Shown here piece by piece: positions 2,436-48,097 of a stretch of 64,000 bases of DNA. Position numbers and translations under genes: made by a program. Each line of letters begins with the position of its first letter. Position 1 is the first letter of the stretch. Source of the DNA: Eledone cirrhosa (taxonomy: Eukaryota); the NCBI GenBank assembly GCA_964016885.1, contig OZ024755.1, positions 37,262,001-37,326,000 on the forward strand, written 5' to 3'. The notes beneath the pieces were generated by a model. That model worked only from the letters and a program-made list of their open reading frames with translations. It did no database searches and was not told the DNA's origin.

Positions 2436-2787
2436 TTAAAACTTAAAAACTTAAAACCACAACTGAATACTAACCCATACAATCACTAATACTCTTTTAT
2501 TCCTAATTAAACCATTTTTCAACTGTGAACAATTTGTCAGCATTTTCTATTCCGTTTACCAATATATATATATGCAATCATGTATGTATATGGATGGTAA
2601 GAATCGATCTTATAACAACTGCTCTCTCAGATCTTCTTATATCATTGTTCTTAAATATTCGTTCAAACACGCATAATGTGGATACATTTGTCTTGACAAT
2701 ATCATACCATTGAATCATATATAACATCACTTTTTATATAAGGCATGGGACACATTGGTAGATAGATAGATGGATAGATAGATAGAT

Positions 2788-3027
2788 TTCTTTATTAGCC
2801 ACAAGGGCGCAACAAGAAAAGGGGACAATACAAAGACATGCCGGGGATTTTACATACAGTCGTGTAAAAAATATAAAAACAAACAATTTCAACAATCGAA
2901 ATCCCCAATAGGGGGAGGCGCCACAAATGGGTTGTTTAATACCCCGTCGATAGAACAACCCTCAACTCCAGGAGCGTGTTGTGCAAGTGCTCCTTTCGTC
3001 CTGTTGCTCTCTTCCTCAACCTACAGG
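2788..3027 (-). mobile_element. Tx1-like family B, 3'UTR-only copy inside (GATA)n
   Basis: Near identical to 45413-45651; GATA repeats on both sides; truncated just upstream of the ORF2 stop codon. Confidence 0.92.
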
Positions 3028-3147
3028 ATAGATAGATAGATGAATAAGTAAGTATAGAGTGACATTGTTTTATATGTGTGAGAATAACAAGAGTAGTATA
3101 GCTGCTATCACTCAGAAGGTTCAAACAAAAGTCGTCCTATAACTGAG

Positions 3148-3400
3148 ATGGAATGGCTCTTCCAGCGCATCTCCCTTACCATCCTCCGCAGAAACGCCTT
3201 CTCCATACTCTCCGCGGGGCTGTGTGTGTGTGTGTCGGGGGGGAGGGGCAAGCACGTGGGACCTCATTTGCGCTCACCATACAGAGAGATGAGAAGGGCG
3301 AGAGAGGTGGAGGCGATGACAGTGGGAGTTCGGCCCCTCCACGTTCGGACCATATCCTTGTTAGTCGTGACTTCTCCCTGTCACCACACTGCCACACTTT
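3148..3400 (+). mobile_element. CRE-like (restriction-like endonuclease) non-LTR element, 3' fragment
   Basis: EWLFQRISLTILRRNAFSIL resembles the QRxSxxxxRGNA C-terminal motif of RLE-type elements; homologous copy at 24355-24600. Confidence 0.65.
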
Positions 3401-3854
3401 ATAGAAGCGATTGTTGTTGTTGTTACTGAGTTATAAAGCCTACACAATGTTGCGAAGAAGGAACTTTTTTTTCTCATAATTTTCACATCAAATACATAGG
3501 GAATATATTCTTTATGTTATATACTTCTGCATTTCAATAAAAATCAATTATCAACACATGGTTCTTAAGTACAATCCTTGCAGCATAAATTCCTCTAGTA
3601 ATCCTTTAATTTTCTTTACGAAAGAAGTAAAACCGAAAAAAAAAACAAATAATAAATAAAATAAACTGTGGACATTAAATAAAAAATCGAAGTAAAGACG
3701 CGGTCAGATAGGGAGAATATAATATGAACAAGATATAATCGATAACTCTAATTAAAATAACGGCACCATTGGTAGAATGTTTGGGGGAAAAATCAAACAT
3801 TACACATTATATCTTAGAGTAACTGAAGATAAACAGCCCAAATAATCATTAGAT

Positions 3855-3936
3855 CAGACAGAGAGGCAGACCGACATACAGACAGACAGACAGATACATA
3901 CTCAGACAGAGAGGCAGACCGACAGACAGACAGACA
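3855..3936. repeat. Left part of GACA-rich minisatellite (target of Tx1 family A)
   Basis: Unit CAGACAGAGAGGCAGACC(GACA)nGATACATACT; continues at 9550. Confidence 0.92.
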
Positions 3937-43868: not shown

Positions 43869-44020
43869 GGAGTAAAAAGCAAGTAAGCTAATGAGGAGGC
43901 GAGATAAGTGATTAGTTATGCAGGTTACTAGCCAGTAGAGAGAAGGTTAGAGTGCTCAATGCATACAGGTGGTTAGACTAGTGAGCTACTTAACACAACA
44001 TCATTATTAACGATATTGAA

Positions 44021-44126
44021 GGTGGTGGATTGGCAGTATCGGTAGAGGGTCGAACGTCATGCTTTGACGCATAGAGTTACGGCCCTTGCCATTATGAGTT
44101 CAAATCCCGCCGAGGTCAAATTTGCC
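44021..44126 (+). mobile_element. SINE family 1 head (3'-truncated)
   Basis: A and B boxes present; homology stops at TTTGCC. Confidence 0.85.
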
Positions 44127-44640
44127 ATCCCACCCGACGAGCCCATACCATGGCTGGCTGCATCTGTCCTTGTCGGAATCGAGGACAGGACAACGAAGCT
44201 GCAAGTGCAGAGCATGGGAGGGAGCACTGGTCAGGTATTGGAATGTAAAGGCTAATCCAAACTGACCAGCAGTGTATCGAGGCAATCCCGGACATCATAG
44301 ACCTCGAAGGAGTCTCACTGCCCATAAATGAGGTAAGAAGACTCCCAAAGTGTTATCTCTGTGGGTCGAAGGGTCAACTCAGTGTCTTTTGCCCGCAGAA
44401 GACAGCAAAGGAGAAGGCCAGGCCCCCTCCTTCCGACGCCTGATCCGTTGCTACCAGGAGCAGGACAGTCAACAGAGGTGTCAGAGATTTCGGCGGTAAG
44501 TAGGAGGGCACTCATACCAAGGCCACGGTCAACTAAAACAGCGGCAGCAGTGGCGGCAACACCAACAGTCGCTTTTCAGCATCATGGAGGAGCAAGCAAT
44601 GTGGCAACAGTCTGGCTCGTTCCTCTCTCAGTCAAAAACA
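44127..44640 (+). pseudogene. Decayed Tx1/L1-like ORF1 fragment
   Basis: IEAIPDIIDLEGVSLPINEVRRLPKCYLCGSKGQLSVFCP resembles family A ORF1 ISGIPDRVLLDG...EGRRPSCYHCAGRGHLRTACP; frameshifts and stops present. Confidence 0.65.
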
Positions 44641-45412
44641 TAAACACACATGTTTTCCTCTCTTTTTTTTCTGTGCTTTTCCTTAAAGCCTACCACCATT
44701 CCGTTGGTATACATCTATTATGCAATTTACACCTGAAGATGTCACCGGCTTCTTACGCAACCTGGTCACTGAAATGTACACAGTGTTTGCAGAAATAAAA
44801 AAATAAGGAAATTCAACATATTTGGCCTACTGTCATTTCAGTTTAAAATACATTTATTCCGTTCACGCACCACCAACAGGATTCAACATTGGAGATGGAT
44901 GAGTTGCATAACGTCGAGTGCTTTTCTTGCATTACGTCAAGATTAACATTGCAGAATGACCAATTCTATCCAGTGGTAAACCACCAAATTTAAACGTATA
45001 TATATATATATATATATATATATATATATATATATATATATATATATATAACTAGAAATTGATCAACATACATATAAAAAAATATAAACATGAATAATCA
45101 CAGGAGATAATTTTTACAAGCGCGTAACCACGCATGGATAGTAGGTAAGAAATAAATAAAGTTAACTAGAACTTCAAAAATAGATACCTTTTAATGAGTG
45201 ACACCCACAATTTCGATTTAGATTGAATTCATTTATCTTAATTTTGGATATAGATATATATATATATATATATATATATATATATATATATATATATATA
45301 TATATATATATATATATATATATGTGTGTGTGTGTGTGTGTGTGAAGAGTTGTAGATGATAGACAGATAGATAGATAGATAGATAGATAGATAGATAGAT
45401 AGATAGATAGAT

Positions 45413-47324
45413 TTCTTTATTAGCCACAAGGGCGCAACAAGAAAGGGGACAATACAAAGGCATGCCGGGGATTTTACATACAGTCGTGTAAAAAATATAA
45501 AAACAAACAATTTCAACAATCGAAATCCCCAATAGGGGGGAGGCGCCACAAATGGGTTGTTTAATACCCCGTCGATAGAACAACCCTCAACTCGAGGAGC
45601 GTGTTGTGCAAGTGCTCCTTTCTTCCTTTTGCTCTCTTCCTCAACCTACAGGCTTATAAACAGAGAAGGCCCAATCACTCGGGCCATTTTCGCTTCATTC
45701 ACCCACCTTTCAGTAAATTTACTGGGGTGCAGTGCCTCTCTCTCCACCCTGATTCTCCTTCTAAAGTGATACTTAAAGAAGGGAATCAATTGTTGTCCGG
45801 AGAGAAAGGCATCTGTCCTCAGTCCTCTCAACCTCGTCCACCATATAACTTCTTTCACCATAGCCACCGTACAGAGGAAAACCGCCTCTCTTTCGTTTTT
45901 GAAAGAGTCTGGCGGTTTGATCCTTACTATGGACTCGGCAGTCAACTGTATTTGTCCCATACGCGACAGCAGTTGTTCTGCATAGTTCCACAGGTCGCTT
46001 ACGCCCGGGCAGTGTACAATTGCGTGCAGAACTGTTTCAATGTCCTGCGCACATCTTGGACACGTCCTCTTGGAAGGATCCCTGCCAGGGCGTCCGTGCC
46101 TGTAGATCTTGTCACGAACCGGTAGAGATCCTCGGTAGCACTGCCAGGCCAGAGACCTCTGGAAGTTGTCCAAAGGTCCCGGGCGGAAAGTCCTACCAAA
46201 CATACTGGTGAGCTCATCGTCTTCGACGCCCAGAGTCTCTCCGAGCACGTCGTCGCCCTTGTAACGTACAATCCCTCTATAGAATGTCGAAGTGGAGTCT
46301 CCACTGATTGCTGCGCCCGCTTGCCAGAGGACTGTGAGCGCCTGAGCGCATTCAATGTGCCAGGCGCCCATCGTTTTCGGTCTTTTCTTCACCCAGGACT
46401 GCAGCTCCGTTAGCGAGACGAGCTGTGGGAAAGCCTGTCTCACAAACGGTGCCCACACCGGTTGGGGGTCGGTGAGGAATACCTGGAGATGCCGCAGCCT
46501 CAGCGCATGTTTGCGCATCATCAGCCACGGCATTCCCAGCCCTCCGTTGGAAGGGTGCTGACAGCAGACGGATCTCCTCACCAGCGGAGCCTGCTTCTTC
46601 CACAGAAACTGGAAGAGCATGCGTTCCATCTTGGCGAGGTGTTCACGGGGACAAGGCACGACAGTCAAGCGGTAGTAGATGACGGACGCTATGAAAGTGT
46701 TCGCCACCTCCGCTCGACCTTTCAAGGACAGTTTGCACTCTGCCCACTTCTGAGTGAGTGCAAACACCTTGGCCGTGACCTCGTTCCAGTTTTTCTCCAC
46801 CTGGAGGTCTGGACCGAACCAGACCCCGAGCAATTTCACCGGTCCGTCCGTCCAGCGTCCAACGACGCTGTCGGATGTCATCGGTTTGCCTCTCCACGTA
46901 CCGAGTTGCAAACCGACAGACTTGTCTGGGTTTAGTTTTGCTCCCGTCAGCGTTTCGTATTCTTTCAGTATGTTGCCGATCACCCCGATTTCCGAGGTGC
47001 TCGACACCATTACTGTCACGTCGTCGGCATAAGCCGACGCCGCTTTGCGCAGTCCCGGTTCTAGGGGGATGCCCTGCAACAGCTCCAATTTCCGCAGTAG
47101 TGGCTCTAGAGTCAATACATACAGAATGGAGGAGAGAGGGCATCCCTGTCGAATGGAACGCGTGATTGCGAACGGCTCCGATAGGTAGCCGTTCACCTTG
47201 ACCCTCGAGCAGATGCTGGTGTGCATCGCCTCGATCCATCCTCTGAACACGGGACCGAAACCGGCCGCCTTGAGAACCGCTTCCAAGTATCGATGGTCGA
47301 CCCTATCGAATGCCTTAGACTGAT
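45413..47324 (-). mobile_element. Tx1-like family B, 5'-truncated (RT C-half to 3'UTR), inside (GATA)n
   Basis: Open 546-aa frame 45646-47286 highly similar to family A ORF2 (RQGCPLS, YADD, CPRC); long GATA arrays on both flanks; GAT microhomology at the 5' junction. Confidence 0.95.
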
Positions 47325-48097
47325 AGATAGATAGATAGATAGATAGATAGATAGATAGATAGATAGATAGATAGATAGATAGATAGATAGATAAATAGAT
47401 AGATAGATAAATAGATAGATAGATAGATAGATTGTACTATTCTCACATCGTATATTACATCATTCTTGTAGTAGCGTGTGTATTTTTCTTGTGCTGAGAG
47501 ACATAACCACTGTTCCGTTAGTTCAAGCATCAATTAGATAAGATATCAAAGCCGAAAGTTTTGTAAATATTGTAACGAAATTTTTGTTGACCTTTCTTGT
47601 TACGGTGGAGCTAGTGTTGTTACATTCGGTTGGTCTTTGACGGGAGAGTTTCATGTTTTCTTTCTGTGGATTAATCACGTTTCAACATTGTAATTCCCCA
47701 GATCTTATGACAGCATTTAGATACCAATTTGCTAATTTATGTGAAATAGTTACGCAGTGCAGAGTTAACATTACTTAGATCCATTATGTAATGCATGTTA
47801 TATTCGATCATTGATCTGTCAATATTGACAGGGTCAACACACTAGTCAACACACTAGTCTTTCAATTTCCATACATTTTGCTTTATGTCCTATCTTTCCC
47901 CTCTTTTCTTCATTCCTGAAAGACGGCTTTGAATATACCGTATAATATGCTTTCCTTTTGAACATGTATTTCGCACATACCGTATAATTTGTTTCCTTTG
48001 CTTCCGATATAATTGCTTTACTTAAGTATTTGCCATTAATAGGATATATCTCGTCAGTCCATCGCCATTCTGATCGGCGTTTCAGAACTTGTATAAA

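Follow-up and report, generated by a model that had tools for sequence, protein, structure and literature searches.

In the genome of Eledone cirrhosa, a stretch of 64,000 nucleotides (positions 37,262,001 to 37,326,000 of contig OZ024755.1, here called the window; the assembly comprises 3.0 Gb) contains three Tx1-like retrotransposon insertions, one of family A in a GACA-type repeat and two of family B (B1 and B2) in GATA repeats. This raises the question whether such repeats are the targets of insertion or only tails of the elements and, if they are targets, what selects them. A preliminary description of the window had located B1, A and B2, in the same orientation and free of poly(A), and this was borne out for all three, which lie on the minus strand. 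Genome-wide, these young long interspersed nuclear elements (LINEs) of the L1/Tx1 type join a fixed element end to a 5-nt site that is typical of the family, namely TATCT for B and most of its relatives, TGTCT for A and AATAT for a sub-branch of B, termed B′.

Junction motifs and insertion sites

The 3′ ends of the elements were counted in the genome by exact-pattern searches, for which the reversed-pattern controls were all 0. The 3′ end of A was matched 165 times; 11 of the 165 matches continue with TATC, and among the 132 that were listed nearly all flanks start with TGTCT or AGTCT. In 115 distinct A ends from the fetched loci, a set that includes loci picked for TATC, TGTC was more frequent than TATC in 104, less frequent in 5 and equally frequent in 6. 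The B-specific 3′ end was matched 1,200 times. For a 20-mer common to B and its relatives 3,862 matches were obtained, of which 1,347 continue as TCTATCT and only 18 have TGTC within 4 nt. The junctions of the first 30 A copies by genome position were TGTCT (23), AGTCT (4), TATCT (2) and AGTAT (1), compared to TATCT (21), AATAT or AATAA (7) and others (2) in the corresponding sample of B (G versus not-G at position 2, Fisher p = 8e-15). Since TATCT and TGTCT make up 0.20% and 0.15% of all start positions in the window (TATAT: 2.4%), the preference for these two motifs is far above chance.

These counts agree with the earlier view of site-specific APE-type LINEs with distinct targets, of which A uses GACA and B uses GATA. 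That view had taken the tetranucleotide repeat as the target; the GACA/GATA split was retained, and the repeat unit had to be replaced by a 5-nt motif. The sites TATCT, TGTCT and AATAT are preceded by a pyrimidine and have mostly T in positions 3 and 5. Poly(A) was absent from the junction classes (96 B-type and 115 A ends), and an AATAAA hexamer was found 6–8 nt upstream of the element end.

For the distinction between target and tail, those truncated B copies were analyzed in which the 5′ junction is visible (49 copies, excluding the TGTC-selected loci L160–L177). The 5′ flank was GATA in 35 of them and GACA in one, and a target-site duplication was present in 33, of which 27 start with TATCT. 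Duplications of at least 10 nt occurred 23 times compared to 11.8 under shuffled pairing. In general, the duplications are about 6–22 nt long and begin at the junction motif. Since truncated B copies have both GATA 5′ flanks and target-site duplications, targeting rather than a tail is indicated, as had been proposed for the copies in the window; a majority of non-repeat 5′ flanks, which would have spoken for a mere tail, was not found. At sites outside repeats (e.g., L005, L018, L144), duplications of 13–18 nt start with TATAT or TATCT; the target is therefore a short motif, of which the repeats offer many copies. The 5′ flanks of 19 truncated A copies were GACA-rich in nine cases and unrelated, without a duplication, in seven; two copies had a duplication at GTAT sites, one had too little flank, and none was dominated by GATA.

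In full-length copies, repeats on both flanks are less clear evidence for a target, the 5′ repeat of such copies being partly derived from the element. The perfect run was longer on the 5′ than on the 3′ side in full-length A (65 copies; median 15 versus 7 nt, p = 3e-4). In addition, 13 GATA-like bases still separate the duplication from the start of the element in two B′ copies that are full length and lie at an AATAT site; the two may be duplicates of each other.

Most A copies are full length (44 of 60 picked by position), and most B copies are truncated (full length in 7 of 30). Head-to-tail arrays of up to nine ends are formed by A, at C3:358735006-358781090 and at other places on C1 and C2; an example on C3 has nine ends spaced at about 5.6 kb, and in some arrays the spacers are only 6–35 nt in length and GACA-like. 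GATA-ending families are nested in the 3′ flanks of one another (L063, L067, L069, L071, L076), and nine clusters of 3′ ends with at least two copies were counted. At L224:395-6051, an unrelated (ATG)n flank is followed by an A 3′ end of 43 nt, then by a spacer of 26 nt and a full-length A, an arrangement that may be the read-through product of a tandem array.

A distant group (L350–L378, e.g., C1:17006071-17006119) shares the last 20 nt of B, with about 67–74% identity to B in open reading frame 2 (ORF2). It ends at ATTATTATT, as do most of the 100 matches listed out of 135. A fourth target, (ATT)n, is probable for this group, of which only a few 5′ junctions were seen.

Family relationships and the AATAT sub-branch

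A tree was calculated from the last 900 nt of ORF2 with 47 rows, in which A and B were thinned to at most three per junction type; the non-A rows labelled GACA are rare and were chosen by a search for TGTC continuations. Family A nests among several GATA-ending lineages and B falls in a separate clade, so that the two are not the sister families they had been taken for. Within ORF2, A and B are 71% identical over the endonuclease (EN) and 84% over the reverse transcriptase (RT). Since A sits within GATA-ending lineages, GATA is likely to be the older target and the GACA of A a derived one.

The hairpin loop of the EN, which had been suggested as the switch between GACA and GATA, was identified by aligning the sequences with L1-EN and with the Tx1L loop grafted onto it (PMC1950540, as far as the text available describes it). 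The loop is SNNSGQS in A, TNHSGQS in an old A copy at GACA (one copy, L263), RNHSGQS in family D at GATA and VNRSGTS in both B and B′. The suggestion was not supported, since a His at the loop tip occurs in the old GACA copy as well as in the GATA family of L063, and since the B sub-branch changed its target with no shared change in the EN. A structure prediction of the B EN from the single sequence reached a pLDDT of 42 and was not used.

This sub-branch, B′, was defined by B-type ends that continue with TCAATA, which were found 118 times genome-wide and on many chromosomes. B′ is 98.0–98.9% identical to B and clusters inside it, with 2 label changes compared to 14.2 when shuffled (0 of 500). 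Its copies are situated outside GATA repeats, with a GATA 5′ flank in one of 35. All 21 B′ duplications start with AATAT or AATAA and are preceded by C or T, and duplications of at least 10 nt were present in 16 of 35 copies, compared to 0.14 under shuffled pairing. A total of 32 unique B′ flanks was obtained, with differing truncation points and duplications of their own.

The EN is fully covered in four B′ copies. In two of these the residues are the ones most frequent in B, and each of the other two has a single private change; no shared EN change was found among the four. The only shared change in the B′ ORF2 is D931Y, which lies beyond the thumb as aligned to L1 and occurs in none of 26 B copies. 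Two independent sites lack it, one being L338 and the other L336/L337, which are duplicates of each other and have a 16-nt duplication. At each of the four diagnostic positions, L338 is the same as L196 and L289, two copies at GATA sites. These copies without D931Y suggest that the target shift preceded the change.

Two full-length B′ copies (L279 and L280; C1: 35.25 Mb and 36.18 Mb) lie in a minisatellite with TATCT immediately ahead of the AATAT site, which is a possible setting of the original switch.

Possible roles of the RNA 3′ end and the protein in target choice

Cleavage of mRNA takes place 10–30 nt after AAUAAA. Since the hexamer lies only 6–8 nt from the element end, cleavage would fall in the flank. 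A transcript cut and polyadenylated downstream of the element would thus bear a piece of the donor flank. The EN may nick at roughly Y/W-N-T-M-T, the first four to five flank bases of the RNA would pair with the primer, and reverse transcription would start at the element end. Efficient priming would be limited to nicks whose last four to five bases pair in this way; with priming upstream of the poly(A), the A tail would not be copied. Every insertion would duplicate its site, which would explain the arrays and nests. A donor that had landed off-target would seed a lineage with a new target. We consider it fairly likely, and more so than any other reading, that the target is picked jointly by a loosely specific EN and by pairing of the RNA 3′ end with the nicked DNA. 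It is more tentatively proposed that the target is inherited through the RNA, with the donor flank as a short guide, so that one off-target insertion could have given rise to the 118-copy lineage with the same EN, and the same process to the GATA, GACA and (ATT)n specialists.

Pairing of this kind has precedents, described here from the text available of the sources. In human L1, the snap-velcro model combines an EN nick with pairing of the last ~4 primer bases to the RNA end (PMC4014453); L1 pairs via its fixed poly(A), whereas the pairing bases would here be donor flank, changeable and heritable. For SART1Bm and R1Bm annealing (PMC7265360), and for avian R2 a requirement of at least 4 nt (PMC13580325), have been described; in these elements, precise priming is helped by a few bases at the RNA 3′ end that match the target. 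In contrast to the families studied here, those are elements of ribosomal DNA or telomeres with a fixed target, and the parts of these sources that were available describe no natural sub-branch that kept its EN while turning to another 5-nt site. In LINEs and SINEs (short interspersed nuclear elements) of the RTE clade, the duplication start follows the 3′ microsatellite tail, and the RNA 3′ end has been proposed to switch the integration site under one protein (PMC6007223). RTE differs in clade, in having an encoded tail rather than a captured flank, and in that the first base or two is concerned rather than a 5-nt site.

Several observations weigh against a role of the RNA end. No transcript was seen, so that read-through and the poly(A) position are predictions; contigs of four runs compared with the B′ locus L345 included no informative joint among those shown and gave nothing on transcript ends. 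The A variants AGTCT (7 of 94) and TATCT (5 of 94) are not clustered on the tree (6 versus 6.8 and 5 versus 4.9 changes), and so they are not inherited within A; position 6 of the B′ site does not cluster either and is not inherited. The B′ branch is modestly supported (96/82) and also takes in two B copies, and 5′ untranslated region (UTR) and ORF1 changes are common to the few full-length B′ copies (2–3). The first four letters of the B′ flanks were set by the search pattern; in the unbiased sample of the first 30 B copies by position, the junctions are bimodal.

The protein is the main competing determinant. If ORF2p alone set the target, through the EN in A and through D931Y or other C-terminal or ORF1 changes in B′, with a non-selective RNA end, the ten EN residues of A that are absent from the GATA families, including Ala40 in place of Ser/Thr beside the catalytic Glu, would be accounted for, as would the presence of D931Y in 19 of 22 B′ copies. 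EN swaps retarget SART1/TRAS1 (PMC7265360, text available), and the EN of Tx1L is sequence-specific in vitro (PMC1950540, text available). This explanation has to deal with the four B′ copies that have no shared EN change, with the two independent B′ sites (three copies) that lack D931Y and with a loop tip that is not sorted by target, and is considered rather unlikely as the whole answer. A contribution of the protein to the target of A is possible in view of its ten private residues. If a different family had supplied the protein that mobilized B′ RNA in trans, the (ATT)n-ending group being one candidate, this would fit the 20-nt end that this group and B′ have in common and its site ATTAT, which is AT-rich like AATAT. 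However, none of 21 B′ duplications starts with ATTAT, the B′ copies L280 and L281 have an intact ORF2, and the (ATT)n group looks older (nearest copies 90–97% identical, 10 compared, versus 99.5% for L279/L280), which makes mobilization in trans improbable.

It could also be argued that the repeat is a tail encoded by the RNA, as in CR1, L2 or RTE, and that insertion is near random. The motif is present on all junctions. Unrelated 5′ flanks occur in 14 of 49 truncated B copies (seven of them listed without a duplication) and, for truncated A, in 7 of 19, which also counts against targeting. The pattern expected of such elements, with the repeat on the 3′ side only, was however not found in truncated B, where GATA 5′ flanks prevail; truncated A has GACA-rich and no GATA-dominated flanks, and the duplications begin right at the element end and leave no room for a tail. 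A pure tail is thus very improbable. The same low standing is given to duplication or gene conversion within repeat arrays after insertion: tandem arrays exist in A and some B′ loci are duplicates (L317–L320, L336/L337), but the unique B′ flanks with their varied truncation points and own duplications, and the spread of B′ ends over many chromosomes, speak for independent insertions.

A change of target in site-specific LINEs is usually credited to evolution of the endonuclease. B and B′ form a near-isogenic pair, 98–99% identical, with intact natural ORF2s, a common endonuclease and different sites, and could therefore serve to tell the RNA end from the protein as the determinant of the target; A and its closer GATA relatives offer a second, older comparison. 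Should the choice lie with the RNA, four to five of its bases could steer a LINE of the APE type, and target drift would need no change in the protein.

Clade placement and features of the window

An N-terminal APE endonuclease, an RT and a C-terminal zinc knuckle are encoded by intact natural ORF2s of A, B and B′. The profiles PF03372 and PF00078 were detected above the cut-off in all three, and no match to RNase H was obtained in these ORFs by profile search. The ORF2 protein is colinear with L1 ORF2p over residues 5–857 (E 2e-55), compared to E 1e-21 for R2. A zf-RVT match in the ORF2 C-terminus (E ~1e-5) is below the curated cut-off. Elements of the Tx1 clade have a C-terminal zinc knuckle in ORF2 and no RNase H, and their ORF1 has RNA-binding domains and a CCHC knuckle. 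In ORF1, zf-CCHC is weak (E 0.066) and CX2CX4HX4C is visible; Atlas matches of 0.89–0.92 to CCHC/RRM/ZCCHC3-type clusters are leads only. The preference for a target sequence, a feature of Tx1, is present. The 39 homologous proteins (best identity 70%, 17 at 37–43%) are unnamed and do not help to assign a clade. The elements probably belong to Tx1 rather than to L1.

Targeting of microsatellites by Tx1 is already known, with (TC)n for Kibi, (TTC)n for Koshi and (TTCC)n/(TTTC)n for crocodilian families (PMC4494074, text available; its supplements may hold further Tx1 targets). Like those, the elements described here are of the APE type, prefer simple repeats and form tandem insertions parted by a duplication. 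They differ in their targets (GATA, GACA, AATAT and, probably, (ATT)n), several of which occur side by side within a single radiation whose members have a common 3′ end. Junctions in (TC)n, (TTC)n, (TTCC)n or (TTTC)n were not found among TATCT, TGTCT and AATAT, and the poly(A) tail plus TT/AAAA target of mammalian L1 was seen at none of the 96 B-type and 115 A ends. For Octopus vulgaris, L1-Tx1 families, possibly the same kind of elements, have been counted, 13 of them recently active, in a paper whose main text does not contain the word "target" (PMC13282606); a further octopus repeat paper counts L1-Tx1 families, with no target analysis in the text available (PMC8967140). Tx1 elements targeting GATA, GACA or AATAT, or such a switch, were not found in the literature searched, Repbase, Dfam and supplements being outside the search; relative to this literature, these targets and the switch from B to B′ are new.

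The features of the three insertions are listed in the following table.

Positions of the A and B insertions and their parts in the window
Feature	Position	Strand	Remarks
B1 3′ flank, (TATC)n	2757..2784	-	opens with the 13-nt target-site duplication
Family B copy 1 (B1)	2785..3027	-	5′-truncated, ~243 nt: ORF2 end and 3′ UTR
B1 AATAAA	2791..2796	-	6 nt ahead of element end; putative poly(A) signal
B1 13-nt duplication, 5′ copy	3028..3040	-	
A 3′ flank, GACA-core minisatellite	3855..3936	-	
Family A full-length copy	3937..9549	-	5,613 nt; 99.4% identity to intact copy L080
A AATAAA	3945..3950	-	8 nt ahead of element end
A ORF2	4161..7597	-	codes for APE endonuclease, RT and a zinc knuckle at the C-terminus; interrupted near 7448
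A ORF1	7621..9375	-	584 aa; CX2CX4HX4C knuckle and P/T/Q-rich tract
A 5′ flank, GACA-core minisatellite	9550..10078	-	
B2 3′ flank, (TATC)n	45353..45409	-	
Family B copy 2 (B2)	45410..47324	-	5′-truncated within RT; 3-nt microhomology at 5′ junction (5′ end 47321/4)
B2 AATAAA	45416..45421	-	
B2 5′ flank, (TATC)n	47325..47432	-	

B1 has (TATC)n on both sides with its 13-nt duplication, and B2 likewise has GATA on both sides. The A copy, with a 14-nt duplication, had been placed in pure (GACA)n; its flanks do have a GACA core, within a composite minisatellite (40–52 bp). Compared to the intact copy L080, a single nucleotide is missing from the endonuclease region of its ORF2. At 24844-24938 lies a (TATC)n tract of 95 bp, with no A or B end noted alongside. 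Furthermore, a 107-bp tandem repeat was found at two places in opposite orientations (10390-11029 and 48714-49030), and related units of ~205 bp, which we take to be SINE-like, occur as tandem pairs at 38912-39287 and 61467-61854.

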